DNA of 44,713 nt. It comes from a virus. Its lineage: Duplodnaviria > Heunggongvirae > Uroviricota > Caudoviricetes. Below, piece by piece: positions 7,052 through 44,245 of this stretch. The stretch lies in IMG/VR virus record IMGVR_UViG_2531839450_000015. One strand, given 5' to 3'. The notes below the pieces were generated by a model. The model worked only from the letters and a program-made list of their open reading frames with translations, made no database searches and had not been told where the DNA came from. A program made the position numbers and the translations under genes. Position 1 is the stretch's first letter. Each line of letters starts with the position of its first letter.

Positions 7052-7111
7052 TTATCTGGCTCCATTAACAACAAAACCGCCCGCAGGCGGTTTCACATAA
7101 AACGTTTTACA

Positions 7112-8400: not shown

Positions 8401-8404
8401 GGAT

Positions 8405-9103
8405 TTACTGCGAAAGTTTATTGATGGAAAGGAAACCGCCAAAGTTACCGACGTTATGACGTGACTTACAGCCACTCAGGCATTTACTGCATTTATCCTT
8501 CGTGATATCAGACGTCGGCTGGTCATATTCATCCGCGACAGCCGGACCGTGATAACCGCACTCATCACCGCGATAGGTCCAGGTACAGGTGTTGGCCAGC
8601 ATGGTACGTCCCGGGAAAACCGCACCGTCTGTCTCCGCTGGCGAGGCCAGAACAAACGTTGCCGTCACCGCCGTCAGATCGCTGCACTGTTCAATACGCC
8701 AGTAACTGATCACCTCCTGTTCCGGATCGGCTTCACTGTTTCCGTTAGTAAAATTCACCGCATCCAGAAAACGGGCGTAAACCTTACGCCGGATCACCGT
8801 TCCGCCAGCCAGACTCTGTAAATCCTCCACCATCCCGGTAACCATCCCGTACAGGTTGGACACCGTCAGGGTGGGGCGGGCGCTGCTTCCCTTGCCTTTC
8901 ATTTCAAACCCTGCTCCCTGAACAGGATACACCTCATATTTCCGGCCCTGCCAGGTGACGGCCTCCCCCTTCTCGTTAGGCTCATTACTGAAAAAATAAC
9001 GCTCCCCGCCAATCTCTGTCAGATCAATTTCCCAGAGTACCAGGCTGGCAGACTGCTCCGTACGGGTACATTCATTCAGTGTTTCCTGCCGGATATCCTG
9101 CAT
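8405..9103 (-). CDS. L: Minor tail protein L
   Basis: 232 aa, the same length as lambda L, with a C-terminal cysteine cluster (CSKCLSGCKSRHN). Position between M and K. Confidence 0.9.
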   Translation of the reverse strand: MQDIRQETLNECTRTEQSASLVLWEIDLTEIGGERYFFSNEPNEKGEAVTWQGRKYEVYPVQGAGFEMKGKGSSARPTLTVSNLYGMVTGMVEDLQSLAGGTVIRRKVYARFLDAVNFTNGNSEADPEQEVISYWRIEQCSDLTAVTATFVLASPAETDGAVFPGRTMLANTCTWTYRGDECGYHGPAVADEYDQPTSDITKDKCSKCLSGCKSRHNVGNFGGFLSINKLSQ

Positions 9104-20623: not shown

Positions 20624-22543
20624 TTATCCTCCACTCAGAGCAGCCGCGATTTCTTCAATAGTCATTTCATCGTCGTCCTGTTCATCTCTTCTGGCGCGGG
20701 CCAGTGCATCCAGATCCAGTTGCCACCGCTGAACGGAAATGCGCAGCGCTGCATAGGCATACACCAGACAGTCCAGAGCTTCATTACGCCGTTTTCTGGC
20801 ATCCCACTGGAGTTTCACCCGCCCGTTCACAACTTTTTCAACCAGCTCTTCTGCCACGAGTTGTTTAGCTTCAACATCAGAAAAAATGTCCGGGTTATCC
20901 GGAAAACGGAAGGTATACGGTGCGACTTCACTGGCAGATACCACCGGCAGGGCAAAACGCGCATACAGCATTTCCTTGACGGTATCGGAACCCACCTCAC
21001 ACAAAAACACCCCACGCTGGTTTCGCTTTTTTGGCATGGTGATCACCGGCTTGCCGTACACCGACGCCCCTTTGATGGGGAGCACAAAAAAAGTGCCGTG
21101 TTTTCTGGATCGCTGATACACAATGTCCTGGTCAATACCACCGGTATCCCAGCAGACGCGGGAAATGGAAATTTCAGTGCCATCTGCATGACGGTATTTT
21201 TTCCGGATCACGGCATCAACGCGTTTAAGGGTGTCCTCATCTTCCGGTCTCCCCATGATGATCTGCTTGTCAATCAGAAAAGCTTCTTCGCCAGGAGCCC
21301 AGCCCCAGACATAAATCTCATAACGGTTTTTCTGAGAGTCGATCCCTGCGGTCAGGTAAACCACCCGCAGGGGAACCTGCGCATCATAGTGGCAGACTTT
21401 TTCCAGCAATAACTCAAAGCTCAGTTTTTCTGCCACAGCCTCTTCATAAGGCTCCCCCAGCGTGGTGTTAATGAACGTCTTGACGCCATTCGGATCCTTC
21501 AGTGCATCAAGCCAGTCATAAACAATCTGTACCCAGGTGGTGAACGGGCTGTATGCCGTCCAGATGTGGTACGAGATTGAGCGCGGTGGCGGGATTTCCT
21601 CATCACCGGCGCTGTAAAATGTCAGACCGTCACGCGTCCACATCCCGGTATTGTCACAAATCCACCGCCCGTCGGTCTGGTCAAGTTCCGACTGACGGAT
21701 CGCGCAGCCATTATGTTCACACAGGTAATACACCGTCTCCGGCTTGCCCTTCTCCCATTTCAGGCCAAAGGTTGTCGCATCATCGCCAAACTTCAGATAC
21801 TGGGCTTCACCACAATGAGGGCATGGCACATAAAACCGCATAAAATGTGCAGATTCGTTCGCGGCTTTTTCAATCTGGCAAAAACCTTTAATTTTGGGCG
21901 TTGAGCCGCGTATGGATTTAGGCCATACCGAACCTTCGATACGCTTATCGCCAAGCAGAGTTGGTGAACCTTCTTTTTCCACATCCGGTTCAAACGAGGA
22001 GAGTTCGTCATAGCAGACCACATCCACAGATTTTTCACGGTAGTTTTTGGCAGCAGCTCCGCCCAGACACCAGAATCCCACACCGGAGGAGAAACGTTTC
22101 AGGGTAAGCGTGTTGTCCCGATGTTTTCTGCCAAACCACGGAGCCAGCTCCAGTAATACAGGAACGTCTCTTATCGTTGGTTCGACATGGGATTTCATAA
22201 AATCTTCTGCCGCAGAATCTGTCGGCTGAAAAAGCAGGCTGTTACGGGATTTGTGTTCAATAAAATAAGCCTCCACCCCCAACAGCATTTTGGTGTAACC
22301 AACACGCGCCGATTTAATCAGATTAACGGTGCGGATCCGGTCATTCCCCATGCTGTTCATGATGGCAACCTGAAACGGCAGTGTTTCCCATTGCCCGGGA
22401 GTATATGAAGACTCTTTTGGCAGATAATAATGCTGATCAGCCCACTGAACTGTCGTCAGTGGTACCGGAATATTGAGAGATACAAGCCCTGTTGCTATCG
22501 CACCGGCTGCATTAGCTGCCTTCTGTGCGTCTGAAATCATCAA
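20624..22543 (-). CDS. A: Terminase large subunit A
   Basis: 639 aa; [27 protein letters not shown], a Walker-type ATPase region and C-terminal nuclease region match lambda gpA. Confidence 0.95.
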
Positions 22544-23060
22544 TCCACCCGCCTACGTTCTCACCAGCTTTAGCTGCAACGTTGGAGGCTTTTGCGATTT
22601 CAGTTTTCACCACATCAAGGTGTGACGGTGAAATATCCGGATATTTACGCTGTAATGTCAGCGGCACACGTACAAGTATCCCCGAAATCTCCTGTGCCAC
22701 ACGTTGCAGAATGAAGGTAAACAATTCCGTTTCCAGTACCAGCCCTTCTTCGCGGGCATTTTTCAGTTCCTGTGCATCAGCCTGTGCTTTTGTGAGTCGG
22801 TAGCGCTCATAGTCAATGGTGCCGGGTTGTAAATCTGATTCCGCAGCCGCACGCAAATCCTCGGTCTCTTTGCGGAGTTTTTCGTTTTCAATATCGGCTT
22901 CGCGCTGCGCATACCACTGAATTGCCATGGCGGTATCAAATACAGATTCAACCCCCTTACTACCACCAGAGACACAAGAGAGCCCCTGAGACTGCCAGCG
23001 TTCAATCGTTCGTGGATCCACGTTGAAAATTTCCGCGAGCTTCTTTTTATTAACCTTCAT
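22512..23060 (-). CDS. Nu1: Terminase small subunit Nu1
   Basis: Start refined to ATG at 23060 ([27 protein letters not shown]). Winged-HTH N-terminus and [10 protein letters not shown] match lambda Nu1. Confidence 0.9.
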
Positions 23061-23214
23061 AAAACATTTCCATATCAAATGCAGGGTCCGACATGGAAGT
23101 GCTCAAAAACGTCTTTTTCGGGCACTTTCATGTCGGACCTTTTACGGATGTGATTGATGAAAAAACAATGAGTTATACACGAGAAGTACCGACACGCTTT
23201 TTCCCGAAAAATTT

Positions 23215-23260
23215 TCATAAATAGCGAAAATCCGCGCCGCTGCCGCCCCGTGGCAGACCA
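23215..23260 (-). promoter_or_regulatory. cos: cos site (cosN with the start of cosB)
   Basis: Minus-strand sequence GGGGCGGCAGCGGCGCGGATTTTCGCTATTTATGAAAATTTTTCGGG is colinear with the lambda left end (GGGCGGCGACCTCGCGGGTTTTCGCTATTTATGAAAATTTTCCGG, from memory), about 180 bp upstream of Nu1. Confidence 0.6.
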
Positions 23261-23743
23261 CCCCACCGGAAGGACCCGTACAAATAGAGTTATTATTAAT
23301 TACATTTACAGTAGGAATGATGTACATCATTGAAACACCATTCAGTCATATACCGACAGCATTCGGTGTTGCACTTCATAACTCTGCGACTACGGTTATA
23401 AAAGCATTGGCTACTTTTGCCACCGGCAAATCTTCAATGGATTTCCCCTGCCGGTTTTTTATTTTCATCGATGCATAACATTGCTTTTACATCAATAGCA
23501 GCTATTGTCAGTAGTATGTTGTATCGATGCATGGGTGGTATTGGCGATCTTCGCCGACCGGTTCTGTGTAGCTCCCTATGACCGGTTTTTTTATTTCTAA
23601 GATTATAGAAGTCCTTCACTGTATGAAGGACTTCTATAACGCTTCTTACTTTGTAATTTTCGCACCTTCCGGTAATTCCATAGGTTAAAAAAACCTCATA
23701 ATCTCTGACAATTTGATCCTACCCACGTAATATGGACACAGGC

Positions 23744-24610
23744 CTAAGCGAGGTTCTGGTTTTCAAATTGTTCCGGACTGAGGCCGCCACACCAACTGTG
23801 CCGCCGCCACCGATTGTAATCACATTCGATATAATTAAACACCGTTGCCCGCATTATTTCCCGGCTGATAAAGTGTTCTCCATGGATACATTCCACTTTC
23901 AGCGAATGAAAGAAGCTTTCCACGCAGGCATTATCGTAGCAGCAACCTTTTGCGCTCATACTTCCACGCAGATTATGCCGTTTCTGTTGCGCCTGATAAT
24001 CTGCTGAACAGTACTGGCCTCCACGGTCCGTGTGAACGATAACGTTCCGGGGCCTCTTACGCCGCCACAGCGCCATCTGCAGGGCATCGCAGGCCAGTTG
24101 CGCCGTCATGCGTGGCGACATTGACCAGCCAATAACGGCACGTGACCACAGGTCAATGACCACTGCCAGATACAGCCAGCCTTCATCTGTACGTAAGTAC
24201 GTGATGTCTCCTGCCCACTTCTGGTTCGGGCCACTGGCGTAAAAATCCTGCTCCAACAGATTTTCTGACACAGGCAGGCCGTGTGCGCGGTAGCTGACCG
24301 GGCTGAACTTCCGGGAGGCCTTTGCCCTCAGTCCCTGACGGCGCAGGCTTGCCGCCACGGTTTTTACGTTAAAGGGGTAACCCTGAGCACGCAGTTCATC
24401 CGTCAGGCGTGGGGCACCGTAACGCTGTTTTGACCGGGTAAAAGCCGCGAGGACAACGCTGTCGCAGTGTTGGCGGAACTGCTGACGCGTGCTTATCCTT
24501 GTCCGCCGCTGACACCACGTATACCAGCCGCTGCGGGCCACCCGGAGCACGCGGCACATTGCTTTGATGCTGAACTCAGCCTGATGTTTTTCAATAAAGA
24601 CATACTTCAT
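23744..24610 (-). CDS. insF: IS3 transposase OrfB (DDE integrase core)
   Basis: 288 aa; [31 protein letters not shown] and [11 protein letters not shown] motifs of IS3-family OrfB. Confidence 0.9.
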
Positions 24611-24915
24611 TTCAGGCGCTTCGCGAAGTATGTCGCGGCCTTTTGGAGGATAGCCAGCTCTTCATCCCGTTCTGCCAGCTGGCGTTTGAGACGTGCAATC
24701 TCGGTAGACATCTCCAGTTCACGTTCAGAAGACGTCTGCTGATTTTGCTGTTTACTGCGCCAGTTGTAGAGCTGTGATTCATACAGGCTGAGTTCACGGG
24801 CTGCGGCAGTAACACCGATGCGTTCAGCAAGCTTCAGGGCTTCACTGCGAAATTCAGGCGAATGCTGTTTACGGGGTTTTTTACTGGTTGATACTGTTTT
24901 TGTCATGTGAGTCAC
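24607..24915 (-). CDS. insE: IS3 transposase OrfA (HTH)
   Basis: [50 protein letters not shown]. Ends at the A-rich CAAAAGG frameshift window overlapping orfB. Confidence 0.9.
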
Positions 24916-25068
24916 CTCTGACTGAGAGTTTACTCACTTAGCCGCGTGTCCACTATTGCTGGGTAAGATCAATTATCATCCACACAGGATAAAGACATCT
25001 GACCAGATTGCAGTATTAAAAGCTCTCATGCAGACTACGCACCCCATATCATATACAAGGTTATACTG

Positions 25069-25479
25069 ATGGCTCAGGTTGCCCTTTTTAAAGAAATATT
25101 TGATCAAGTGCGGAAAGATTTAAACTGTGACCGATTTTACTCTGAACTAAAACGTCACAATGTCTCACATTACATTTACTATTTAGCCACAGGTAATATT
25201 CACGTTGTATTGAAAAATGATAACGCAGTGTTAATAAAAGGACTTGAGGAGGTTGTGAATGTTAAATTTCGCAGAGACACGCGACTTATAGAAACTTACT
25301 CTCATAAGTTGAAATCAAGAGAAATCACATTTCATGAATACAGGGAAAATCTGGCTAAGGCTGGAGTTTTCCGATGGGTTACAAATGTCCATGAACACAA
25401 AAGGTATTACTATACCTTTGACAACTCATTATTGTTTACCGAAAGCATTCAGAACACGACACAATTTTTTCCACGCTAA
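25069..25479 (+). CDS. DUF1398-type protein (resembles DLP12 YbcV by recollection)
   Basis: 136-aa ORF next to bor on the same strand, as ybcV is in DLP12. Family assignment is from memory of the YbcV sequence. Confidence 0.55.
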
Positions 25480-25703: not shown

Positions 25704-25997
25704 ATGAAAAAAACGCTACTCACTTTCACGCTGGCCCTGCTTATCTCTGGATGTGCTCAACAGACGTTTACTGTTGAAAACCAACCGACAACAGTAACAC
25801 CGAAGGAAACCATCACTCATCATTTCTTCGTTTCTGGAATTGGTCAGAAGAAAACTGTCGATGCAGCCAAAATTTGTGGTGGCGCAGAAAAAGTTGTTAA
25901 GACTGAAACCCAGCAAACATTCGTAAATGGATTGCTCGGTTTTATCACTTTCGGCATTTATACTCCGCTGGAAGCTCGGGTATATTGCTCACAATAA
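25704..25997 (+). CDS. bor: Bor lipoprotein (Bor/Iss serum-resistance family)
   Basis: 97 aa with a lipobox (LLISGCAQQ). ETITHHFFVSGIGQKKTVDAAKICGGAE and TPLEARVYCSQ match lambda Bor. Opposite strand to the late operon, as in lambda. Confidence 0.9.
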   Translation: MKKTLLTFTLALLISGCAQQTFTVENQPTTVTPKETITHHFFVSGIGQKKTVDAAKICGGAEKVVKTETQQTFVNGLLGFITFGIYTPLEARVYCSQ

Positions 25998-26006
25998 TAT
26001 CATAAG

Positions 26007-26028
26007 TTGCCCATCTCGATGGGCAACT
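26007..26028 (+). terminator. Hairpin downstream of bor (GTTGCCCATC..GATGGGCAAC), possible terminator
   Basis: Near-perfect 10-bp dyad directly after the bor stop codon. U-tract is weak on the plus strand and more T/A-rich on the minus strand. Confidence 0.4.
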
Positions 26029-26314
26029 CTATCTGCACTTGATGCGCAAATAACAACCTCCAAAAGAAAAATAGCAAAAGCAGACCGTGTCACATAAAGA
26101 CGTGCAGTTACTTTCTTTTCTATTCCTTTCATAACGGACGGCTTTAAAAGAAGATTTATACGATCTGCCGAGGATTTTTCTCTGTACTCACTGATTCATA
26201 TTCTCCTCTTTGTTTGGTATAAAAACCGAACTCTTTCTCCAGTCGTTTTTCTTGTTCGGTAAGTCTAATAACAAGCTAACCGCAGGTTGGATTTACTGGC
26301 CTCATTAATGCCAA

Positions 26315-26860
26315 CTACACCACCACGCGCTCTTTCATCCAGCCATACACGAACGATTCATTAGCCTCACGTTTTTCTGCCAGTTCAAGGTAGCGATCTC
26401 CCTGCGTACAGTTTAGCGCTGTCAGAATCACCAACTCACCATCCCTGCCACGTTTTGACAAATAGGCGCGTAACGCATTAATGGTACGTGGGCCGATACA
26501 ACCATCTGCATCAATGTCCGGATACAACTCTCCTTTCTGGTTAAATACATTAAGCCAGCGCTGAAGCATTCTGGATGCCACTGACGGCCCCATGTTTACG
26601 CCGGTATCACACAATTCAGCAGCGATCTCCGGAGACAGGCTCGCAACCTTGTGAAAACGTGGCCCGTACCAGTAGTCCGCTTCAAGAATTTCGAGGGCCT
26701 GCCCACGCGTCAGGTCACGAATATCCCCCTGATAACCGTGTGCACGGGCAACTTTTCCAGTAATGCCCCATTTAGTCGGACCACCTTTATCATCAGGGTG
26801 GTTGACGTAGCCGCCCTCTTTGCCAAGAACAGCATCAAAAATTTCATCTTTCGACTTCAT
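26315..26860 (-). CDS. Endolysin, glycoside hydrolase family 108-like with C-terminal peptidoglycan-binding domain
   Basis: EGGYVNHPDDKGGPTKWGIT motif typical of GH108 N-terminal domains. Start refined to ATG at 26860. Third gene of the lysis cassette. Confidence 0.65.
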   Translation of the reverse strand: MKSKDEIFDAVLGKEGGYVNHPDDKGGPTKWGITGKVARAHGYQGDIRDLTRGQALEILEADYWYGPRFHKVASLSPEIAAELCDTGVNMGPSVASRMLQRWLNVFNQKGELYPDIDADGCIGPRTINALRAYLSKRGRDGELVILTALNCTQGDRYLELAEKREANESFVYGWMKERVVV

Positions 26861-26861
26861 C

Positions 26862-27140
26862 TCAGCGCCTTCGTAATACAAAGATTTTTGAAACGTTCCC
26901 ACGAGCACGAACCACCAGCACGCAGAACAGCAGGTTAAAAAACACTTCCAGCCAGCCCGTTGCTAACGGGCGACCACACAGATAGCTGAGGGGCGCAAAG
27001 GCATACAGCAGCATCAGCAACCAGGCCAGCCATGACATCAGCGGTTTATGTCTGGAATCACGACGACGATAAAAAAAGAGCGTCAGCACGATAACCGTGC
27101 ATAACGCCACATTCAGCAATCCGGGAAGGTTACTTAACAT
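26862..27140 (-). CDS. Small multi-pass membrane protein in the lysis cassette (second holin or antiholin-like)
   Basis: 92 aa from ATG at 27140, with 2 to 3 hydrophobic helices and a charged C-terminus (RARGNVSKIFVLRRR). Sits between the holin and endolysin. Confidence 0.45.
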   Translation of the reverse strand: MLSNLPGLLNVALCTVIVLTLFFYRRRDSRHKPLMSWLAWLLMLLYAFAPLSYLCGRPLATGWLEVFFNLLFCVLVVRARGNVSKIFVLRRR

Positions 27141-27522
27141 TGCCGCCTCCTCCACCCCGCAGGCGGGAGAACAGGCCGGACACCAGCGATGCAATATCCT
27201 GCTGGTGGATGAACGAGAGAATCTTCACCGACACCACCGCCACCAGCACCGCACACAGTGCATCCGCCGATGTACCGTCATAACCTGTTTTTGATGCAAT
27301 CCAGGCTGACAGCACATGCGCACCCAGCACGCCAACGATAAACGACACCAGAAAATGCGCTGCCACACGCCAGGCAGATAGTGCCTGCGGCATTGTGGCC
27401 ACAAACAGCGCCCCGGCAAATGCGCCAAACACAATCCCGAAATCCGTTCCGGTAAACAGCCCGAATACCGTCGCCCCGCCGAGCGCCGCAGCCGTGCCGG
27501 AACCGGATAAGGGTTCAGACAT
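27130..27522 (-). CDS. Putative holin
   Basis: 130 aa from ATG at 27522 with upstream AGGAG. Gly/Ala-rich hydrophobic helices and first position in the lysis cassette. Confidence 0.55.
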   Translation of the reverse strand: MSEPLSGSGTAAALGGATVFGLFTGTDFGIVFGAFAGALFVATMPQALSAWRVAAHFLVSFIVGVLGAHVLSAWIASKTGYDGTSADALCAVLVAVVSVKILSFIHQQDIASLVSGLFSRLRGGGGGNVK

Positions 27523-28667: not shown

Positions 28668-29156
28668 TTAAAACCGTTCCAGAGTGCATACCATCGCATC
28701 GGCGGGTAGTTTTTCCGTGAAGTCAACCTGACCGTGTTTATCGAAGTGGATCAGTAATGCGCATCCATCATTTTGGGTTGGGGTGTTTTGTGCTGCTGGT
28801 GGTTGTTTTTGGCTGAAATAACAGTCTTCCAGTTTTTCGAACACTTCCCACGCCTGATCGGTTTCCAGCATTTTGGCGTGACGGGCTGCTCCGCGTTCTG
28901 TCCAGAGGATGAGGTGCTTTGTACGCGGTGCAACTAAGTTACTTTGAGTAACCTTGTTCTTAAATTCCCGCAACTCAGCCCCTTCCAATTTGAAGTAGTG
29001 TTTCCCACAAACAAAACGCTCGGCATTGCGTGTATAGTTCACTTTGATGTTATTAGTTTCGGTGCCATAAAGTTGTGCCAAAAGCTCGGTAGTAATGACA
29101 GGGATTTGGTTATGGGTGATCGGGGAAAGAGTTTCAACTGAGATTTGAATAGCCAT
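28668..29156 (-). CDS. ORF6N-domain protein (antirepressor-like family)
   Basis: LLAQLYGTETNNIKVNYTRNAERFVCGKHYFKLEGAELREFK fits the ORF6N consensus pattern (LAxLYGxET...RNxERF...F.L...EL) as I recall it. Confidence 0.55.
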   Translation of the reverse strand: MAIQISVETLSPITHNQIPVITTELLAQLYGTETNNIKVNYTRNAERFVCGKHYFKLEGAELREFKNKVTQSNLVAPRTKHLILWTERGAARHAKMLETDQAWEVFEKLEDCYFSQKQPPAAQNTPTQNDGCALLIHFDKHGQVDFTEKLPADAMVCTLERF

Positions 29157-29429: not shown

Positions 29430-29825
29430 CTACATGATTCGTTCTACGTATCTGTCCATCTCCAGTCGGATATCAAGCATCATCAACATGCCATCAATAA
29501 CCCCTTCCGCTTTCTGCAGGCGCTTGCCAATACAGGTATCCGAACACCCATGCTTTCGTGCCAACCCCATAAAAGTCATTCCACCTACGTAATAATCCAC
29601 CAACAAATCGTGCAAATCCTGATTTTTCTTGTTCAACCGGGCCATACAGCCACAAATTATCATTGCATCATCATCAGAACACTGAGGGCGTGATTTCACT
29701 TTCGGCGGGATTAATCCTTTAAAACCAGCAGCGATTGACGCCCATGACACATCTTCGTGATTGTTCGCAGCCCATGCTCCCCACCGCTCCATAACCTGCT
29801 GAATATCACGCACCATCGTTATCAC
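29430..29825 (-). CDS. Q: Late antiterminator Q (phage-82 / QuuD type)
   Basis: [26 protein letters not shown] and [14 protein letters not shown] match the Q antitermination family of DLP12 QuuD and phage 82. Confidence 0.8.
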
Positions 29826-31240: not shown

Positions 31241-31630
31241 TTACCTCCAGATGCGTTGCTGGAATGTGCGGGACGGACGCGGTGGGCGTTCGGAGTAAGG
31301 AAGCCTGACGGAGATTATCCAGTGACGGTAGTCGAGGCTAAGGGCTTTTTTAACCTCGTATCCGCGCCTGCGGTAACACTGAATTATCCATTCAGCCTGC
31401 TCTTCAGTGCATGGTGGATGCTGGAACCAGTCCGATTTGAATGCATGAAAACGCCGTCCGCACCTGCTGGCAAAGACGGCAGAATCATCAGAATTGTGTA
31501 ATTTGGTATCGTGCGCCATCGGTTGTCTCTGCTGGCGCAGCAGGTGCCAGTTGTTCAGGCTGGCGTATAAAGTATAAATAAACTGGTTCCAGTGTAAAGC
31601 CCCTACATTAATGGAATAAAAGTCAAACAA
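31241..31630 (-). CDS. Hypothetical protein (Rem-like position); true start may be the internal ATG at 31519
   Basis: Track ORF starts with TTG. An internal ATG gives a 92-aa product. Lies between the ydfU-like gene and hok, as rem does in Qin. Confidence 0.35.
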   Translation of the reverse strand: MFDFYSINVGALHWNQFIYTLYASLNNWHLLRQQRQPMAHDTKLHNSDDSAVFASRCGRRFHAFKSDWFQHPPCTEEQAEWIIQCYRRRGYEVKKALSLDYRHWIISVRLPYSERPPRPSRTFQQRIWR

Positions 31631-31887
31631 CAGATTGCTGGGATAAACACAACGCTTATTATTAAAAGCGATTAGATAAATTAAATTTTAATGTTATGCA
31701 ATTTTACCAGATCACCATAACATCTCGTTTGAAACCACCGAAACAACAACCATATCAATATTGATTATGTTAAAGTGAGTAAATATGGAAAACAACAAAT
31801 CTGCACATTACGCTCCTTTTTTATCTGTAATACTTTTTGTTTTATGCTGTGTGTGGGCATTATTTTTATAAAAATATTTACAGATAA

Positions 31888-31910
31888 AATAAACCCGCCG
31901 AAGCGGGTTA
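31888..31910 (-). terminator. Intrinsic terminator of the hok transcript
   Basis: Minus-strand AACCCGC-TTCG-GCGGGTT followed by TATTTTATCTG. Confidence 0.55.
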
Positions 31911-31977
31911 AGTGCGGGTGCATTGAGGATGCCTGACACATCAGAGGTGGCGAGGGATTTCTCCCTCGCCGGGTCTC

Positions 31978-32133
31978 TTACTCCTCAGGTTCGTAAACTG
32001 TGAAGACAGCGACCTCCGTCTGGCCGGTTCGGATTCGTACCTCGCAGAGGTCTTTCCTCGTTACCAGTGCCGTCACTATGACGGTTAAACAGATGACGAT
32101 CAGGGCGATTAACATCGCCTTTTGCTGCTTCAT
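31978..32133 (-). CDS. hok: Hok/Gef-family type I toxin
   Basis: MKQQKAMLIALIVICLTVIVTALVTRKDLCEVRIRTGQTEVAVFTVYEPEE is essentially the HokD/RelF sequence as I recall it. AAGGAG SD upstream. An overlapping upstream in-frame extension (to 32190) corresponds to a mok-like frame. Confidence 0.85.
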   Translation of the reverse strand: MKQQKAMLIALIVICLTVIVTALVTRKDLCEVRIRTGQTEVAVFTVYEPEE

Positions 32134-32542
32134 AGCCTGCTTCTCCTTGCCTTTCGGCACGTAAGAGGCTAACCTAGATTTGCCGTTCATAGATTGAGCC
32201 TCAGATTAATGTTAAGCGTCTTGCAGGACGCATAATGTTAACTGGGGCTTTTCTCTATCTGCCTTTGGTGTTCATGCTTGAGGCAGATAGCCTCAAGCAC
32301 CCGCAGCAATTTTACTTAACTCCCCTTTTCCCACAAATCGTTTTTATCCCTATTGGTAATGTTCTCCCGATGTGGGATTCCCACATTGGAACGAATTCAA
32401 TCAGTTAAAGACTCATCAGAATCTCACCTTTCTAAGTGCCCACAGGTGAGGCATTGCAATAAAAATAGCAAACGTGTATAAAAGGAGGTAATGCATGTTT
32501 TTCCAGTCTTATCAATCCATTACTGAGAGTTAAGGGGGCGCC

Positions 32543-33337
32543 GTGGATCGGTGCGGTAATTATTTACTTAAAGATGGTCGCAGTTTAGGACAAGGGAGTT
32601 TTGGCGAAGTATTTAAGGTTGATGTCTATAACTTAACCCAGACCCACATGACCACATATGCTCGCAAATACTTTTCACCTTGCCCGGACTTTGACAAGAC
32701 CGCTATAAAAGAGTTGACTGATTTAAGACAGCGTTTTTTAGTTGAGATCAAAACACAATGCACTCTCAATAGAATAAACTATGATTCAATAGCGCCAATA
32801 GTTTTATTTAATACAAATGGTGATAAACCTTATTTTGTTATGGAATTGGCAGAGTGTAATTTATATGAAGCCATCCGCAATGGTATGAATTACGCGGAGA
32901 GGAAGTCTGCTGTTACTCAGATTTTAAAAGGAATTATCACCATACATGAAAACAACTATATACATCGTGATTTAAAACCAGGAAACATACTTTATTATGC
33001 CGATGGAAAGTATAAAATATCTGATTTTGGTCTAGTAAAAGACAGAGATACCTTACGGGCCGAAATCAAAACAAAATTTAAGCCTAATCACATGGGCACA
33101 GATGGATATCGAGCGCCCGAAATACATGATAGCGGTCTTTTTTCTTTTCAAAGCGACATATTTGCAGCAGGTAAAATTATCACTGATATATATCCCACAG
33201 AAAGAAGTGAAAAATTAAAAAGATTGATTGCAAAATGTTGCGCACATTGGCCTGAAGAACGATATCAAAGCACACGGGAGTTACTGGAAGATTTTTTAAA
33301 AGTGACGGGGGAGGTAAATCATGAAGAACATAATTGA
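32543..33337 (+). CDS. Hanks-type (eukaryotic-like) Ser/Thr protein kinase
   Basis: Complete kinase signature set: Gly loop GQGSFGEV, lysine in YARK, catalytic loop HRDLKPGNIL, DFG (ISDFGLV), APE (GYRAPE). GTG start in the track; an in-frame SD-led ATG lies at 32495 but is followed by TAA. Confidence 0.85.
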   Translation: MDRCGNYLLKDGRSLGQGSFGEVFKVDVYNLTQTHMTTYARKYFSPCPDFDKTAIKELTDLRQRFLVEIKTQCTLNRINYDSIAPIVLFNTNGDKPYFVMELAECNLYEAIRNGMNYAERKSAVTQILKGIITIHENNYIHRDLKPGNILYYADGKYKISDFGLVKDRDTLRAEIKTKFKPNHMGTDGYRAPEIHDSGLFSFQSDIFAAGKIITDIYPTERSEKLKRLIAKCCAHWPEERYQSTRELLEDFLKVTGEVNHEEHN

Positions 33338-34036
33338 AATGGCATGTTTTAGCCTAAAACAACCCCAAAAAAAGAAAATGAAGACTTTTATTTACCGCCA
33401 TCTTTTGATAGCGATTTTAACATTGTCTTTGCAGTAGCTGATGGGGTTGGTTCCTCTGAACATTCAATGCTTGCATCTCATGCAGCCATTCGTGGCATTA
33501 GACACACGCTAGGCACTTCCTTTTTCTCAATTGAAAGTGCATTTCATTCAGCTAAAAAAGAAATTGACAATTTAGATATTAGCACTGCCACAACCTTAAC
33601 AATTGTTCAGATCAAAAAAAATGAAGTGTTAATTGGTCATTCCGGTGATTGCCGAGTATACTTCAATAAAAACAATAAACTAAATCAGTTAACCACTGAT
33701 CAAACGAGATATCAAGAACTCCTTGATTCTGGTGAACATAAATTACGTAATTTAAGAAATCATAAAGAACGGCTATCTTCAGTCCTAACGAATGCTTTAT
33801 CAAATACAACGGATTTGAATTTTGAGTTAATGTCTTTTCCGATTAGCCAGCTAATTTATAATGGCTATCTTCAACTCTATGCAATGACTGATGGTGCCTA
33901 TAAGCATTGGGATGTCAGACCAAGGTTTTCTGAGAAGACAATGCTCTCACCAACAGCTTTTGCGAGTAGTTTAAGAAAAAGGATTGAGAAAAACATAATG
34001 GATGATTACACCTTTATAGGCGTAAAAGTAACCTAA
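33321..34036 (+). CDS. PP2C-family Ser/Thr phosphatase; start and body are in different frames (requires -1 shift at 33368..33374, or is a frameshift pseudogene)
   Basis: Body frame shows the PP2C motifs KKENED, FAVADGVGS, GHSGDCRVYF, AMTDGAYK and DDYTFIGV. That frame has no start codon upstream of the conserved motifs. The SD-led ATG at 33321 is in the 0 frame and meets the body frame at A_AAA_AAG. Confidence 0.6.
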
Positions 34037-34672
34037 TTTTAGATATCCAAGATATTTACTCTAATTTAACCATAGTATTCCCAACCTCTTTTTATTGGGG
34101 GTTGGGTTCATTAAAGTCACCATTTTCTATTTCTTTCCCGTTAGAGGATATATTATTTCCAGATAAAGAAAGCAACTTCTTATGCAACTTCATATCACGC
34201 CATGCTTCCACCGCGGTAACTCTACATAGTCCATTAACAGTTCATGCCATTCTTCAAAACTGGCGTTATATTTAGTTGAAGCAAAATCAGCCATTTTATT
34301 CTTCCTCTTCGTCTTTTATTTCGTGATATGAGTAATTGCAGTAGTTAAAGAAAATATCTTTTGCTTCGTCATGTATTTCATCAGGCGTCGCATCATCATC
34401 CACTTCGAATTCATCCTCGAAATCTCCACCGGCTATTCCCGTTTCAATAATTATTTTGAACTTTCGCATTTAACTACCGCCCTGCCGGACAGCCTCCTGA
34501 TGTTCTGAGGGTGCCCCCCCTCCGGTTAAGGATTAAATTTTTAACAGTGCTAAATTTAATTATTCAGTTCTTGATTTTGTCGCCCTGCGTATCCGCGCTT
34601 TCGCGTTACGCTCAATCTGAATTAGCTTTTCTATATTTTTCCGCCTTTCCTGTTCCTCCTGGAGCAATAACC

Positions 34673-34858
34673 TTACATCATCTGCCAGTCTGGTTTCTCT
34701 TTTCGCCACAGAGAGCATCCAGTCAAATGGCTCCACAACTGCACCGCAGATTTTACAGCGGACCTGACGCTCTTTTTCGTCAACCCGGACAGAGGCGTGA
34801 TGACAATATGGTCTTTCCGATGGCTCATAAAGAAAATTAACCTGATTACGAGGGTCAT
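34673..34858 (-). CDS. Small hypothetical protein (nin-region-like)
   Basis: 61-aa ORF whose ATG overlaps the stop of an upstream 37-codon GTG-initiated ORF (ATGA coupling). Confidence 0.3.
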   Translation of the reverse strand: MTLVIRLIFFMSHRKDHIVITPLSGLTKKSVRSAVKSAVQLWSHLTGCSLWRKEKPDWQMM

Positions 34859-34973
34859 CCTCTTTTATCGGAAATAAAACGATATTGCTTAACTAATCCT
34901 CTGGTTTTATTTCCATGCTCCTCTCCTTTGATGCGAATGCCAGCGGCAATTGAAGCCTGATAGCTAATTTCAC

Positions 34974-35396
34974 TCACAGTACCGCCTCCTGAAAATTACC
35001 CTGATAGAAAGCCAGTACACGCTGCATAGCTTCGCTCTTCCGGCACTCGCGACAGATTATATTCAGGCGCCTGTCGTAGCGGCGTATTTCTCCGTCTGGT
35101 AATGACCAGATAAGGTCCGGATCAACCGCAGATGGTTTCTTCGGCTTTGCCCTTGAGAGCTTTTTACGGGCATTTTGCCAGTCCTTACGCGCCTGTTCAG
35201 ACGGGAATAACCCGTAACCAGAATTGTATACATCGCCACTGGCAACCAGCTCTCTGGCCAGAACGCTCATCAGATATCTTGTTGCCCCAGTTTTAGCTTC
35301 CAGTTGTCGTAACGTCTCGCGCCCACTCTGGCGTACGAGTTCAACAACCTGCCCTTTAATTTTTTCCCGCTCTTCTTGTGTAAAAACTTTTGCCAC
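34974..35396 (-). CDS. Hypothetical protein downstream of the replication initiator (P-position gene)
   Basis: 140 aa, GTG start preceded by CAGGAGGG. The same CCTCCTGAAAATTACC upstream element recurs before the next small ORF. Confidence 0.45.
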   Translation of the reverse strand: MAKVFTQEEREKIKGQVVELVRQSGRETLRQLEAKTGATRYLMSVLARELVASGDVYNSGYGLFPSEQARKDWQNARKKLSRAKPKKPSAVDPDLIWSLPDGEIRRYDRRLNIICRECRKSEAMQRVLAFYQGNFQEAVL

Positions 35397-35436
35397 AAGC
35401 CCTCCTGAAAATTACCTCATGACCAGAAATTAACAC

Positions 35437-36513
35437 TTACCCCCTGAAGCCCGGCGGAATTTCGTTATCCGGTTCAGAAATATGATTCACACAACGCTGG
35501 TTGTTCGTGCCGCTTACCGGGAGCAACCAGGGGTTCTCAAAATTCCGGTCCGGTCCAAAAAACGTCGTCGCTCGCTGAACAAATTCCGTTCCCGTTTTCC
35601 CGGTAGCCGCCAAGTATCTTGCGTAACGCCTCACGCCATCCAGCATGGCCTCTGGTGGCACCCCCTCGCGTAATCTGGCCTTCCAGGCACTGAAAGCGGA
35701 TTTCTTCGGGTTTGCTCCGGCACGCAACGGGTACTCCCGCCAGACCTGTTCGAACACATCCGGATAATCCACTCGTCCCACAGACTGCCCGGTGTTTTCC
35801 GGGACTACCCGATCGGCTTCCCGCTGAATGGCGGAATCGGCTTCGGGCTGCTGCAGTTGGTGTGATTGCTCCGGCCTTGCGGTCATCACCTGCTGCACAG
35901 CGCCCGAATCGGCTTTCAGCGCATACGCTGAATCGGCTTCCGGTGTCGTGCCTGCTGGCTGACCAAGATTGACGGTCTGAACATCCCCTGCCTGGTTCGT
36001 GGCGTTTTTTACGCCATGGACCATAGTGTTTTGATCTTCTTGATCTGTATCTTTATCTGTATCTTTATCTGTCGTGACTCGTCGTGACATGTGCGTGACA
36101 TTTCGTGACGCGCCGTGACAATCGCCATTTTGTTCCCGCTTTCTTTCCCTCTCTCGCTGCGCCCTCTTACGCTCTGCAGGAGATTTTGCGGTTTGCGAAA
36201 TATTGCCGTTGTCCTCTTTAAGCACCTGGCGTTTTTCCCATCCAGTGATTAAATCACCATCAAGTACCCGCCCCTGCATCGTCTGCAAAATTGAATCAAT
36301 TACCTCTTCTGTCACGTCGAGCGCACTTGCCAAATCTTCTGTCGTGACATCAATGTGACCTCGCGTGACATTTCGTGACGCGCTCACCAGGAGGTGGATA
36401 TACACTGCCATCACTGTTGCAATTGGCTGCCCTGACACCCTGGCAATTGTTCGCCACTTAGGGTCATTTGGCATGTCATGCCATAATCTGAGCCAGGCGT
36501 TAGCCATACTCAC
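35437..36513 (-). CDS. Putative replication initiation protein (replisome organiser / O-like) carrying the origin iterons
   Basis: 358 aa in the O position downstream of the cro-like and cII-like genes. N-terminal W..L..DMPNDPKW...YIHLL pattern resembles phage replisome-organiser N-domains. Two iteron clusters lie inside the ORF. Confidence 0.5.
   Translation of the reverse strand: MSMANAWLRLWHDMPNDPKWRTIARVSGQPIATVMAVYIHLLVSASRNVTRGHIDVTTEDLASALDVTEEVIDSILQTMQGRVLDGDLITGWEKRQVLKEDNGNISQTAKSPAERKRAQRERERKREQNGDCHGASRNVTHMSRRVTTDKDTDKDTDQEDQNTMVHGVKNATNQAGDVQTVNLGQPAGTTPEADSAYALKADSGAVQQVMTARPEQSHQLQQPEADSAIQREADRVVPENTGQSVGRVDYPDVFEQVWREYPLRAGANPKKSAFSAWKARLREGVPPEAMLDGVRRYARYLAATGKTGTEFVQRATTFFGPDRNFENPWLLPVSGTNNQRCVNHISEPDNEIPPGFRG
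36043..36120 (-). repeat. Putative ori: five CGTGAC iterons at 10 to 11 bp spacing, preceded by a 12-bp AT-rich tandem repeat
   Basis: CGTGAC at 36073, 36083, 36094, 36104 and 36114. ATCTGTATCTTT repeated about 2.5 times at 36043..36071. Confidence 0.6.
36337..36382 (-). repeat. Second iteron cluster (four CGTGAC/TGTGAC repeats)
   Basis: Repeats at 36343, 36354, 36364 and 36374. A 21-bp block GCGTGACATTTCGTGACGCGC is shared with the first cluster. Confidence 0.55.
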
Positions 36514-36578
36514 CTCTTTTGATACCGAATCTTTTTACTCACAAATTGCCGGAAGTGATCCGGTATGAATATTGCGAG

Positions 36579-37004
36579 TCAATGCACAGCCACAATATTT
36601 CCTGCAGGGCCACCACGATTCATCTGGTTGAAACCAGCGATCGCCACTGCGACAAAATCATCAGCGTCTCTCACCAGTCGTTCCCGCGTCTCCACTAGTT
36701 CCCGAAAATAGGCTGAGCTATGACTGCGCATTCGGGCCACCAGCAGAGGTGGCATTGCTTTTTCGATAGCTGGTAACAACGCCTGAATTTTTTTAACCGC
36801 ATCAGGGGTGTCTTTCTCCACCCAGCGGAAAATTTTCTGAGTATTGCGAGCCAGGGCTTCCGGATGGCTGTCGTCATACAGTTCCGGGAACGTCATTCCC
36901 AGCTCGAAATACGCTTTGGTAATTTTCGCAGCCGGTACTTTTTCGCCGTCCGGATGCGCCCAGGCATTCATCGCCATGCGGATGTGTTCATGCTTGATTT
37001 TCAT
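36579..37004 (-). CDS. YdaT-like protein (cII-position regulator of Rac-type switches)
   Basis: 141 aa directly downstream of, and overlapping, the cro-like gene, mirroring ydaS-ydaT of Rac. Assignment is by position and size. Confidence 0.5.
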   Translation of the reverse strand: MKIKHEHIRMAMNAWAHPDGEKVPAAKITKAYFELGMTFPELYDDSHPEALARNTQKIFRWVEKDTPDAVKKIQALLPAIEKAMPPLLVARMRSHSSAYFRELVETRERLVRDADDFVAVAIAGFNQMNRGGPAGNIVAVH

Positions 37005-37255
37005 GAATCAACTCCCATCAGCTTTTTCGTAGTAGTTTTATTCCTGCCAATAGTTAAAATTGCATCGGCAGAAAATAATCCGTTTGATGCAAGAGCGATT
37101 TTTTCAGCGTAATTTGTTTCGCCGGTATATTCTGTGCGAGGCAATTTTCCGTTATCCATCCATTTATAGATTGCTCTTTGGCTGACACCACAAACGTCGG
37201 CCACAACAGCAACGCGAACAGTTTTGATTACATCTTCAAGTGTTTTCTGGTTCAT
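37001..37255 (-). CDS. Cro-like HTH regulator (YdaS-like)
   Basis: Start refined to ATG at 37255 (MNQKTLEDVIKTVRVAVVADVCGVSQRAIYKWMDNGKLP), an HTH motif. Divergent from the repressor gene. Confidence 0.65.
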   Translation of the reverse strand: MNQKTLEDVIKTVRVAVVADVCGVSQRAIYKWMDNGKLPRTEYTGETNYAEKIALASNGLFSADAILTIGRNKTTTKKLMGVDS

Positions 37256-37334
37256 ATCACCCTCACAATGTGAACTTTGAGTACATGCTATAACAGAACT
37301 GACAGTACATTCAAGAGCGAATATCATTGAACTT
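37256..37334. promoter_or_regulatory. Divergent promoter/operator region of the immunity switch
   Basis: 79-bp AT-rich spacer between divergent regulators. Repeated AGTACAT and TGAACTT motifs. Confidence 0.45.
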
Positions 37335-37754
37335 ATGGTTCATGAAGATAAAGCGCGTAAAGAGTTCGCCAGTAGGCTTGCGCTAGCCTGTGAAAACGCT
37401 GGTTATGAACAACATGGAAGGCAGGCAGAAATTGCCCGTCGAATGAAATTAACACCAAAAGCGGTTAGCAAATGGTTTAATGGCGAAACAATTCCTCGCC
37501 GGGAGAAATTAAGGGAATTAGCAACACTAATAGGAACAACACCAACCTATCTTTTGGGAGAGGATACAGAAGAAAGTGGACAGGTACGTTTCTATCAAGA
37601 GTTAAATCCAAGACAAAAAATCATCATTGACCTTCTGGACGAGCTCCCTGACAGTGAGACAGATGAACTTTTAAAAACTCTTGAAGAGAAAAAACAGAAG
37701 TACAATGCAATTTACGAAGAGTTAGCACGAAAGAAAAAACAAAAAGCCTCTTAA
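37335..37754 (+). CDS. Prophage repressor, XRE/CI-like HTH (RacR-like)
   Basis: HTH (QAEIARRMKLTPKAVSKWFNGETIP) at the N-terminus. Divergent from the cro-like gene. Confidence 0.75.
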   Translation: MVHEDKARKEFASRLALACENAGYEQHGRQAEIARRMKLTPKAVSKWFNGETIPRREKLRELATLIGTTPTYLLGEDTEESGQVRFYQELNPRQKIIIDLLDELPDSETDELLKTLEEKKQKYNAIYEELARKKKQKAS

Positions 37755-38049
37755 ACCAGCATAAATCCGGTAGCGCCTTCCTCCGGGTTTGTGCTTCACT
37801 TTATCCCATCTCATTTTTTTTACACACAAAATGTACTAAAAGTACTTTACAACAATGAACGCAAAGTACATTATATACCTGCCACCCACCCCGCCCCAAA
37901 GAATGCAGGGCAATACTTCGAGTTACCAGGCAGTGGTCAGGGGTTAAGTAGCCAGCCCGAGGCGTAAGAACATGACGGCAGGGTTCAACTTTAACTATGC
38001 AGCAGGTTTTTGTTCCGCTACCCCGGCGTTAAGGGGAAATGAGGTCAAC

Positions 38050-38202
38050 ATGGATACTATCGATCTTGGCAACAGCGAATCTCTGGTATGTGGCGTGTTT
38101 CCCAACCAGGACGGTACGTTCACCGCGATGACGTATACCAAAAGCAAAACGTTTAAAACCGAAGCTAGCGCGCGTCGCTGGTTATCCAGAAATACTGACT
38201 GA
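38050..38202 (+). CDS. Small hypothetical protein downstream of the repressor (YdaF-like position)
   Basis: 50 aa from ATG at 38050 with GAGG SD; same strand as the repressor. Confidence 0.4.
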   Translation: MDTIDLGNSESLVCGVFPNQDGTFTAMTYTKSKTFKTEASARRWLSRNTD

Positions 38203-38588
38203 TGAGGTTAACGATGGAATTTAAAGATTTACCAACACCTTTCCAGGAAATGGCAGCGAATATAGTTCGTTCTCAATTGGCGACTCTTGACCTGAGTACC
38301 GTAGAAAAAGAAACCATAGATAATATATCCGGTAACGTGCGCCGTGCCTTTATCGGGTTGTACGAAGAGAAGCAGCACTCTGATAAGCATGATTCCTCTG
38401 AAAAATACTTCCTGGAATTAATGGATATCATTAACAAGGGGTTTGGTTTGTTGATGGAAAAGAAAGGGATTCGAATAGAACCCCTTAAAAACCATTTTAC
38501 TGAGTGCAACATTAATTCCTGTGATTTAAAGCATCCCACTTCAGATGGGAAAGTTGAAGCCAACTATAAAATATCAATTAATCATTAA
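38202..38588 (+). CDS. Hypothetical protein co-oriented with the repressor
   Basis: 128-aa ORF whose ATG overlaps the stop of the preceding ORF (TGATG). An alternative ATG at 38214 has a GAGG SD. Confidence 0.45.
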   Translation: MRLTMEFKDLPTPFQEMAANIVRSQLATLDLSTVEKETIDNISGNVRRAFIGLYEEKQHSDKHDSSEKYFLELMDIINKGFGLLMEKKGIRIEPLKNHFTECNINSCDLKHPTSDGKVEANYKISINH

Positions 38589-38666
38589 GTTCTCCACGGG
38601 TGAGGTGGAGAACATGCGCCGGACACGGATAAATCTCCGGCATGCTCTTTAACATTCTGGATATTC

Positions 38667-39113
38667 CTAACCACAAAGAAATCGCATCAATTTAGATTTT
38701 GTGGGCAGCTTCTCTTGTTGTTCGATGGAAACGCCTATTTTGATCTGTGTTTTTAAGATCGCAATATCTTTAAGTGATGACCAAATATGATCATCCGTTT
38801 TTTCCAGAATTTTTAACTGCATTTTCAATTCAGAATCAGAATATTTTTCTGCATCATCAAAAAGCTGCAAATATTCTGCGGATTTTCTCATGGCGTTACC
38901 TGACTTTTGTCCGAATCCATAAATCGTTTGGACGGTTGCGATCACAACAATAAAAACGCCAGAAATTTCCGGAATGAATCCGCCAATGACAGATGAACCG
39001 AGGATAATACTCACCACTGAGAGAAGTTTATCGAGACGACCAGTCGCTACAGAAAATAGTTGCTCAAGAAAATAGCCATATAAAATTCTGTCAAGAATAT
39101 CATCCCGGTCCAT
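38667..39113 (-). CDS. Two-TM membrane protein in the sieB position (candidate superinfection exclusion protein)
   Basis: 148 aa with central hydrophobic helices (LLSVVSIILGSSVIGGFIPEISGVFIVVIATVQTIYGF). Convergent with the repressor operon, between repressor and early-left operon as sieB is in Rac. Confidence 0.45.
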   Translation of the reverse strand: MDRDDILDRILYGYFLEQLFSVATGRLDKLLSVVSIILGSSVIGGFIPEISGVFIVVIATVQTIYGFGQKSGNAMRKSAEYLQLFDDAEKYSDSELKMQLKILEKTDDHIWSSLKDIAILKTQIKIGVSIEQQEKLPTKSKLMRFLCG

Positions 39114-39578
39114 ACATCATCACCTGCTTGTTTGGTTGTTGCTGTTCCCCCTCTCCTCCGAAGGAGCTGGAGATGGTTTTGGTCGAATGTTTTTCTCTGG
39201 TATGTGATCCCAGACTGTTTTATGTGTCGAATTGCCACCACCTGCTTGTGCTCTTTGCTCTGTCATATGATTTCCTTGGATCGTTGGGGATATCCAGATT
39301 ATACAGATTTCTTGTCGTTGGGGAATGACAGGAACCACCTCGCCTGACGTGGTTAAAAGCAGGCACACAACACGAAAGCGCACGGCGAAGTCATTTCTCC
39401 CTCTGTTGCGTGTCGCCGGTATCTTCGACCGTGCGCTTCCGGTTGTGGCACTCCGCGAAATGGCGCGGCGGTAAGTATGGCGGGGTTATCCTTACCCCCA
39501 CTGGTAGCACCGGGTTGTCAGGTTGACCATACGCCTGAGTGACAACCCCGCCACAACATCTCCATGTTGAGGCTTGTG

Positions 39579-39619
39579 TGAGACCTTTGGCGGCATCAGT
39601 TTAATTGCTGGCTGATGTC
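39579..39619 (+). terminator. Intrinsic terminator ahead of the early-left promoter region
   Basis: GGCGGCATCAG..CTGATGTCCGCC stem followed by CTTTTT. Confidence 0.5.
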
Positions 39620-39633
39620 CGCCCTTTTTAAAG

Positions 39634-39794
39634 TGAATTTTGTGATGCGGTGAATGCGGCTAAGCGCACGCGGAACAGTTAAAAAGCGATTAGTTCCCCC
39701 GTATCGGGTGTTTATGGGTTTCCCTGTATCCGGCGTTAATTGTTAACTGGTTAACGTCACCTGGAGGCACCAGGCACCGCATCACAAAATTCAT
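39634..39794. repeat. Perfect 19-bp inverted repeat pair (TGAATTTTGTGATGCGGTG / CACCGCATCACAAAATTCA) flanking 123 bp
   Basis: Exact reverse-complement copies at 39634..39652 and 39776..39794, immediately upstream of the first early-left gene. Confidence 0.6.
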
Positions 39795-39810
39795 TGTTGA
39801 GGACGCGATA

Positions 39811-39993
39811 ATGGAAACGTTATTACCAAACGTTAATACGTCTGAAGGTTGTTTTGAAATTGGTGTCAGAATCAGTAACCCTGTATTTACTGAAGATGCC
39901 ATTAACAAGAGAAAACACGAACGGGAGCTATTAAATCAAATATGCATTGTTTCAATGCTGGCCCGTTTACGCCTGATGCAAAAAGGACGCTGA
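39811..39993 (+). CDS. Small hypothetical early protein
   Basis: 60-aa ORF with GAGGA SD 7 nt upstream. Confidence 0.35.
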   Translation: METLLPNVNTSEGCFEIGVRISNPVFTEDAINKRKHERELLNQICIVSMLARLRLMQKGR

Positions 39994-39995
39994 CA

Positions 39996-40187
39996 ATGAA
40001 TACAGCATTTGCACTCGTTCTGACAGTTTTTCTTAATACAGGCGAACCAGTCGATCTTGTTATTGGTATACATGACTCAATGAAAGAATGCATGGCTGCC
40101 GCAGCGGAACAGAAAATTCCCGGCAACTGTTATCCGGTTGATAAAGTTATTCGCATGGACAATAACGAAATCCCGGCAGGTCTTTAA
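39996..40187 (+). CDS. Small hypothetical early protein with N-terminal hydrophobic segment
   Basis: 63 aa from ATG at 39996 with AGGA SD (MNTAFALVLTVFLNTGEPV...). Confidence 0.35.
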   Translation: MNTAFALVLTVFLNTGEPVDLVIGIHDSMKECMAAAAEQKIPGNCYPVDKVIRMDNNEIPAGL

Positions 40188-40279
40188 AACAGTTCCGTAA
40201 TAAACATCCGATTTCATTCTTATATGCCAGCAATGGCAGGGATTTGTTCACCCTTAAATCTGTAATGAGGTAAAACAAA

Positions 40280-42751: not shown

Positions 42752-42803
42752 TGTTCAACCGTCGCCAGTTGTCGTTGGTATTCTGCAACTGGCGCGTTCC
42801 GGA

Positions 42804-44169: not shown

Positions 44170-44216
44170 CGAAATAAATACAGCTGAAAAATGTTGATAT
44201 TGCTTTGCTAGTGTAA

Positions 44217-44240: not shown

Positions 44241-44245
44241 AGAGA

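Follow-up and report, generated by a model that had tools for sequence, protein, structure and literature searches.

An IS3 insertion between the lysis genes and cos of a lambda-like Escherichia coli prophage was probably tolerated

Analysis of a viral DNA sequence of 44,713 nucleotides (IMG/VR record IMGVR_UViG_2531839450_000015, the whole of which is referred to here as the window) suggests that a complete IS3 element lying in the path of the late transcript of a lambda-like prophage was tolerated and that the phage remained transmissible, a reading to which we give a probability of about 0.7. The insertion itself is an ordinary one: nothing about the element, its family or its location is of a new kind, and nine complete genomes already have it annotated in RefSeq. 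The only aspect that seems mildly unusual is that an IS-carrying lambdoid phage has spread over several host lineages.

Results

The IS3 element and its empty site

The element in the window and its parts are as follows.

23714..24971, minus strand: complete IS3, 1258 bp, 99.68% identical to K-12 IS3A and labelled by RefSeq as 'IS3-like element IS3 family transposase' in nine genomes
23711..23713: left copy of the ATT target-site duplication, from the sequence and the single ATT of the C41 empty site
24972..24974: right copy of the ATT target-site duplication, from the same evidence
23714..23752: IRR, the right terminal inverted repeat of IS3, cos-proximal, from inverted-repeat pairing
24933..24971: IRL, the left terminal inverted repeat of IS3, DUF1398-proximal, from inverted-repeat pairing
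24607..24906, minus strand: orfA, 99 aa, HTH_Tnp_1 (Pfam)
23744..24610, minus strand: orfB, 288 aa, rve/rve_2 integrase core with DDE, and HTH_21 (Pfam)
24640..24644, minus strand: A-AAA-G slippery site, predicted from the sequence to fuse OrfA and OrfB by a -1 frameshift

The element belongs to the IS3 group of the IS3 family by its size, sequence identity, terminal repeats, two reading frames with a slippery site and 3-bp target duplication. It begins with 5'-TG and finishes with CA-3' (the ends read TGATCC...AAGATCA), and its imperfect terminal inverted repeats have arms of ~39-40 nt that are 73% complementary; the ends were assigned as IRR and IRL from the direction of orfA and orfB. A -1 shift at the slippery site would give an open OrfAB frame of 387 aa, which is the length of the 'programmed frameshift' CDS (1163 nt) that RefSeq annotates at this locus in nine genomes. 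When the element was compared to IS3A of K-12 (insE1/insF1; IS3 family, IS3 group), there were 4 differences over 1255 bp, and the terminal repeats, orfA/orfB, the A-AAA-G site and the 3-bp duplication were all alike. The two copies differ in genomic location, and K-12 IS3A is annotated as 1255 bp, with the alignment leaving out the first 3 bases of the window element. In the copy carried by strain VG48B2 (locus L008), an A-to-T change in the orfB stop codon (window 23746) makes the annotated transposase CDS 1211 nt long instead of 1163 nt. It was also considered that read-through RNA might hide the ribosome-binding site of orfA; a hairpin does cover the Shine-Dalgarno sequence, yet the fold is no better than that of shuffled sequences (z = -0.22) and the idea was rejected.

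The initial annotation of this DNA had proposed a comparison with related prophages lacking the IS. The empty site was rebuilt by joining both flanks with one ATT, and the resulting 1000 bp were searched against complete E. coli genomes. This comparison found C41, ZYB62 and A2, which match the reconstruction at 99% and unbroken, and the unoccupied site of C41 has one ATT and is equal to the reconstruction base for base in the 85 nt inspected. Together with the K-12 match and Pfam, the empty site confirms in every detail the description first given of the element, an intact IS3 of exactly 1258 bp with both repeats, orfA/orfB and an ATT duplication.

The lysis-to-cos region

The prophage is lambda-like and, in the annotated carriers, is integrated between potB and potC. 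The following features surround the insertion.

29430..29813, minus strand: Q-family antiterminator gene, intact (RefSeq annotation)
29425-29396, minus strand: candidate pR', TTGACC-18-TATATT (consensus scan only)
29335-29320, minus strand: candidate tR' hairpin with T-run, directly downstream of Q (consensus scan only)
26315..27522, minus strand: lysis cassette with a GH108 lysin gene (26315-26860) and two holin genes (26862-27140 and 27130-27522), intact (RefSeq annotation of identical carrier genes)
25704..25997, plus strand: bor (Pfam)
25069..25479, plus strand: DUF1398 (YbcV/YdfO-like) moron gene (Pfam)
23765..23839, minus strand: published promoter signatures of the right end of IS3, directed outward to cos and Nu1 (motif location)
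23237..23248, minus strand: cosN cohesive-end position, GGGCGGCAGCGG (alignment to the lambda cos junction)
22512..23060, minus strand: Nu1-like terminase small subunit gene, the first late gene past cos (annotation, alignment)
20624..22540, minus strand: A-like terminase large subunit gene (annotation)

Along the late strand, Q is followed by the candidate pR' and tR', an ORF6N pseudogene, an HTH gene, terminator-like hairpins at 27677 and 27562, the holins and the lysin. Carrier annotation and alignment give the order lysis genes, cos, Nu1, A, head and tail on a single strand, with a cos of the lambda type. The alignment with lambda also shows conservation of the TACGGGTCC-TTCCGGTG motif that immediately precedes cosN and that we take to be cosQ. 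One end of IS3 sits 97 bp upstream of the DUF1398 ATG and its nearest edge to cosN is 466 bp away, and neither a gene nor a recognisable packaging signal is disrupted. The position between the lysis/bor region and cos, as originally proposed, is borne out by the lambda alignment and carrier annotation. The same is true of the proposal that the element lies on the same strand as the late transcript and in its path, as the transposase genes are on the minus strand and co-directional with the holins, lysin, Nu1 and A.

The cos-proximal end of the element is the right end of IS3, for which outward promoter motifs have been published (PMC12095673). Its signatures are found at 23839-23813 (TTTAAT-15-TACAAT) and at 23795-23765 (TTGGTG...CAATTT) on the minus strand, and they agree with the earlier statement that an outward-reading IS3 end, here a putative promoter end, would be placed next to cos. 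A generic consensus scan of the window did not flag these right-end signatures.

The Rz-bor-cos region of phage lambda has a like layout, in which the lysis genes are followed by bor on the opposite strand, a long and mostly untranslated stretch, cosQ/cosN/cosB and Nu1, and its cos sequence is clearly homologous to that of the window. However, lambda has Rz/Rz1 and lambdap78/79 and has neither an IS nor a DUF1398 gene. No Rz/Rz1-type spanin is annotated in the lysis cassette region (window 25998-27522, minus strand) of any carrier. The distance from the lysin stop to bor is only ~318 bp, and a 47-aa ORF with a hydrophobic stretch is found at 25989-26132 on the minus strand.

Other observations were made in this region. 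Between IS3 and cos, at 23603-23639, there is a perfect inverted repeat of 16 bp whose loop has 5 nt (TTATAGAAGTCCTTCA ctgta TGAAGGACTTCTATAA); it is also inside the 1000-bp empty-site reconstruction that C41, ZYB62 and A2 match at 99%. A truncated ORF6N-domain pseudogene (28668-29156, minus strand) between Q and the lysis genes is kept in all carriers, which suggests an older lesion that has not stopped spread. Additionally, the contig IMGVR_UViG_2698536590_000004 has ~2.7 kb of extra DNA (6031-8726) between lysin and bor, at the equivalent of window 26266-26282, possibly as the result of a further insertion into this permissive stretch.

Carriers of the insertion and their mosaicism

Of 5426 complete E. 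coli genomes, 9 have the exact insertion. These carriers come from cattle, milk or farm sources in China, Switzerland, Germany, Japan and the USA. The exact junction is also present in one metagenome contig and in six from IMG/VR, which seem from their names to derive from isolates; all of these contigs are uninformative on packaging. No match to this insertion or to any full IS3 was found among 50,697 sequenced phages, and no paper was found describing the prophage of strain 1303, one of the carriers.

The eight carriers examined do not differ at the junctions, and their IS3 copies are 0-7 bases apart from the window copy. A block of ~6.4 kb around the IS (~23.5 kb to 29.9 kb) is near-identical in all carriers, with at most ~12 differences. 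Among the prophages with this insertion, at least five early regions and two cos/head/tail modules can be told apart, and the immunity/replication regions differ among EC11, VG35A2, N61, ARS-C101, XJ34/VG48B2, 1303/VG12A2 and the window. The terminase, portal and tail genes are different as well in 1303 and VG12A2, with an abrupt switch at ~23.0-23.5 kb, between the IS and Nu1. As judged from this alignment, the switch is a recombination breakpoint that joins the IS3 block to a different cos/terminase/head/tail module. Compared to the window, the 1303 and VG12A2 prophages (L004/L009) have 86 differences in 23000-23499 and 2-3 in 23500-23999.

None of the eight carriers is matched by the window over its whole length, and the window is thus another mosaic. 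Its immunity/replication region (31566-37884) has no match in any of these complete-genome carriers. The int-xis-exo end of the window (37884-44713) is shared with 1303/VG12A2 at 99.9% identity, and its late half resembles EC11/N61/ARS-C101.

On the parsimonious reading of these data, IS3 entered the Q-lysis-moron block once, in an ancestor, and modules were exchanged extensively afterwards. The presence of one insertion within many early regions and two head-tail modules suggests that the insertion is older than much of the mosaic exchange. The element had been described in the initial annotation as relatively recent and unrearranged. It is indeed intact, but the rest of that description does not hold for prophages with at least five early regions, two cos/head/tail modules and 0-7 SNPs among the IS3 copies.

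Late transcription and the morphogenesis genes

A consensus scan found no terminator-like site or hairpin inside the IS on either strand. Three terminator-like sites are present on the late strand upstream of the lysis genes, at 29335, 27677 and 27562, which means that the late transcript must be antiterminated anyway, and Q of lambda is a published polarity suppressor. Between the lysin stop and the Nu1 start there would be 1993 nt without a late-sense gene if the IS were absent, and the IS lengthens this stretch to 3254 nt; the equivalent untranslated gap in lambda is 2265 nt.

All 22 of the 22 morphogenesis genes are intact in the window and in EC11, VG35A2, N61 and ARS-C101, and pairwise dN/dS for these genes among the five is 0.10-0.25. 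The segregating codons comprise 135 with synonymous changes only and 54 with amino acid changes, and there are no stops and no frameshifts. By this codon evidence, the morphogenesis genes among the carriers are under purifying selection, and the low dN/dS could come partly from tracts imported by recombination out of IS-free functional phages.

Spread after the insertion

Two pairs of strains allow the divergence of the prophage to be set against that of its host. The IS3-bearing prophages of XJ34 and VG48B2 are 0.19% apart whereas the host flanks are 1.3-2.5% apart, and in 1303 and VG12A2 the prophage (~32 kb including IS3 and ISEc20) is ~0.04% apart whereas the host flank is 0.9% apart. In both pairs the prophage is 7-20x less diverged than the adjacent host chromosome. 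Host SNPs restart 4-100 bp from the 14-nt att core TGAATAAGAAGGTG on the left side in 1303/VG12A2, and 161-363 bp from the att core in XJ34/VG48B2. The low divergence of the prophages and the presence of host SNPs near the att core suggest lysogeny of new hosts after the insertion, and the closeness of those SNPs to the att core fits site-specific integration and not the import of a chromosomal segment.

The second element of the 1303/VG12A2 prophage, ISEc20 (IS110 family), is in the early region (14244-15440 in L004 for 1303; 37347-38543 in L009 for VG12A2). This prophage with two IS elements is near-identical in two diverged hosts and seems still to have spread.

Two carrier lineages have clearly defective prophages, in which most of the morphogenesis genes are gone. 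XJ34 and XJ6-3 have a deletion from Nu1 to the tail fibre (L005, XJ34 26189-26759), and VG48B2 has one from terminase A to J/lom (locus L008, 24300-27022). The fact that XJ34 and VG48B2 have different large head/tail deletions suggests that the phage entered both lineages complete and already with the IS. These deletions look like independent decay after acquisition and are unrelated to the IS.

Genome length with the IS is ~45.4 kb, as estimated from the window and the distances to the XJ34 att cores, and is below the 48.5 kb of lambda, so that it does not exceed the published packaging limit of ~105% (PMC3429520).

IS3 elsewhere in the lysis-to-cos interval

Other lambdoid prophages also hold IS3 in the lysis-to-cos interval, in both orientations and near ybcV/ydfO-type DUF1398 genes, with terminase genes intact alongside.

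GB089 (DLP12-like): IS3 in the lysis-to-cos interval, duplication GTT
F8: IS3 in the lysis-to-cos interval, duplication ATA, 16 bp from the MFDS1016424 event
MFDS1016424: IS3 in the lysis-to-cos interval, duplication ACC
NCTC11121: inverted IS3, ~25 bp from the homologous window position, duplication GAT
2013C-4991 (Qin-like): inverted IS3 in the lysis-to-cos interval

The positions and duplications of these five differ from those of the window, and each is found in few genomes. A sequence-specific hot spot, or a target resembling the IS3 terminal repeat, was therefore rejected, as the other events differ in position and duplication. An orientation bias towards the late-gene direction was also considered. 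The search joins same-strand pieces only, and a control was run with an artificially inverted IS3. It found 13 genomes with inverted IS3 plus DUF1398 compared to 29 in the native orientation (9 of the 29 having the insertion described here and 2 a chromosomal ycgX insertion), which shows the apparent bias to be a search artefact, and it was dropped. As far as the mapped events indicate, the lysis-to-cos interval behaves as a permissive landing zone, as expected of non-essential moron DNA.

In USMARC-49610 (locus L025, 2501-3758), IS3 lies 113 bp upstream of ycgX, a chromosomal DUF1398 paralogue. The gene pdeG is truncated on the other side of IS3 and there is no matching duplication (ATA and ATC), which suggests an IS3-mediated deletion at this locus.

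Discussion

The explanation favoured here starts with a single IS3 transposition into the non-coding spacer of a lambda-like prophage at potB/potC, which would have created the ATT duplication. The IS would then be part of the Q-dependent late transcription unit and would read in its direction, with no gene cut and with cosQ, cosN and cosB intact. As RNA polymerase modified by Q is resistant to termination of both the intrinsic and the Rho-dependent kind, late transcription probably crosses the IS. The same polymerase presumably already has to traverse ~2 kb of untranslated and partly antisense RNA between the lysin gene and Nu1. Read-through by Q-modified polymerase and a gap that is already crossed would together explain why the insertion was tolerated. 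The block of Q, lysis genes, bor, DUF1398 and IS3 would later have recombined with different early regions and with a different cos/head/tail module, and the IS3-bearing phages would have lysogenised several diverged cattle-associated E. coli lineages, in some of which the prophage later seems to have decayed independently by deletions.

Tolerance does not have to mean the lack of any cost, and a moderate drop in late expression or burst size could still accompany the insertion. A stronger form of this view, that the IS attenuates late expression or burst size, or that the outward promoter perturbs Nu1 and A, and that spread occurs mainly by way of helper lambdoid prophages or recombination that rescues modules, is the alternative that survives best, although we consider it unlikely. 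It is in line with the extensive module exchange among the carriers, with the rarity of the insertion (9/5426 genomes) and with reports that IS elements are generally counter-selected in phages, which are poor IS shuttles (PMC3429520). Helper-assisted packaging and transfer of defective lambdoid prophages is also known in O157 Sakai, where defective but mobilisable prophages such as Sp4 carry IS elements and are still packaged and transferred, and by analogy the spread of the IS3-bearing phages could have been helped by co-resident helper prophages (PMC2669165). The IS of Sp4 is inside nu1 and disrupts the terminase gene, and IS3 in the window disrupts no gene. Against attenuation, purifying selection on the prophage's own 22 morphogenesis genes argues for their use. 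The insertion is also more widespread than the other mapped IS3 insertions in the interval, which are found in 1-3 genomes each.

The initial annotation took the insertion to be likely polar and the prophage to be possibly defective. In its full form this would mean that IS3 is strongly polar on Nu1, A, head and tail, that no particles are made and that the prophage persists only as a carrier of cargo (bor, lom, DUF1398 and others). IS elements were, after all, first discovered as polar insertions. The late transcript must also pass this spot, as a CRISPRi roadblock at lambdap79 near cos of lambda scored as essential though the gene itself is dispensable (PMC10695390). Additionally, the insertion is in none of the 50,697 sequenced phages searched, and two carrier lineages have deleted morphogenesis genes, which decay after a loss of function would give too. 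Against these points, Q-modified polymerase suppresses polarity and the IS is without a terminator-like site, a comparable untranslated stretch of ~2 kb is crossed even without the IS, and the late genes of five carriers are intact with dN/dS of 0.10-0.25. In two strain pairs the hosts have also diverged for much longer than the IS3 prophage, and host SNPs reach the att core, which points to entry into diverged hosts after the insertion. The claim of a polar and defective prophage is thus unsupported, and we regard it as improbable.

Another alternative is that the IS3 prophage moved between host lineages in chromosomal segments, by conjugation or generalised transduction and homologous recombination, and not as its own particle. 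All carriers do hold the prophage at potB/potC, and E. coli core genes are known to recombine. However, host SNPs resume within 4-100 bp of the att core in one pair and 161-363 bp in the other, and crossovers would have been needed almost exactly at both prophage ends, twice, which makes this route quite improbable. Finally, it is very hard to believe that IS3 hit the same target independently in different prophages, for although IS3 insertions cluster around DUF1398 genes, with three events (window, NCTC11121 and the ycgX locus) falling within ~40 bp upstream of DUF1398 paralogues and two (F8 and MFDS1016424) falling downstream, 16 bp from each other, the carriers share a base-exact position, orientation, ATT duplication and near-identical 6.4-kb block, and the other events use other positions and duplications (ATA, ACC, GTT and GAT) in both orientations.

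If the insertion was tolerated and the phage remained transmissible, as favoured here, an IS that a lambdoid late transcript has to cross should not by itself be taken to show that the prophage is dead. The comparative data, the antitermination by Q and the recurrent IS3 hits in the interval all argue that such insertions are tolerated. A bolder proposal is that the IS3-bearing phage is fully functional alone and serves as a natural vehicle of IS3, circulating on several continents in E. coli associated with cattle; we consider this possible, at somewhat less than an even chance. As orfAB runs in the same direction as the Q-antiterminated late transcript, transposase transcription might then surge upon lytic induction. 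The general view is that phages are poor vectors for IS elements, and this family of prophages is a natural system in which to test the spread of an IS by phage. A functional IS3 vehicle of this kind, if it is one, would be an exception to the rule that phages are poor IS shuttles.
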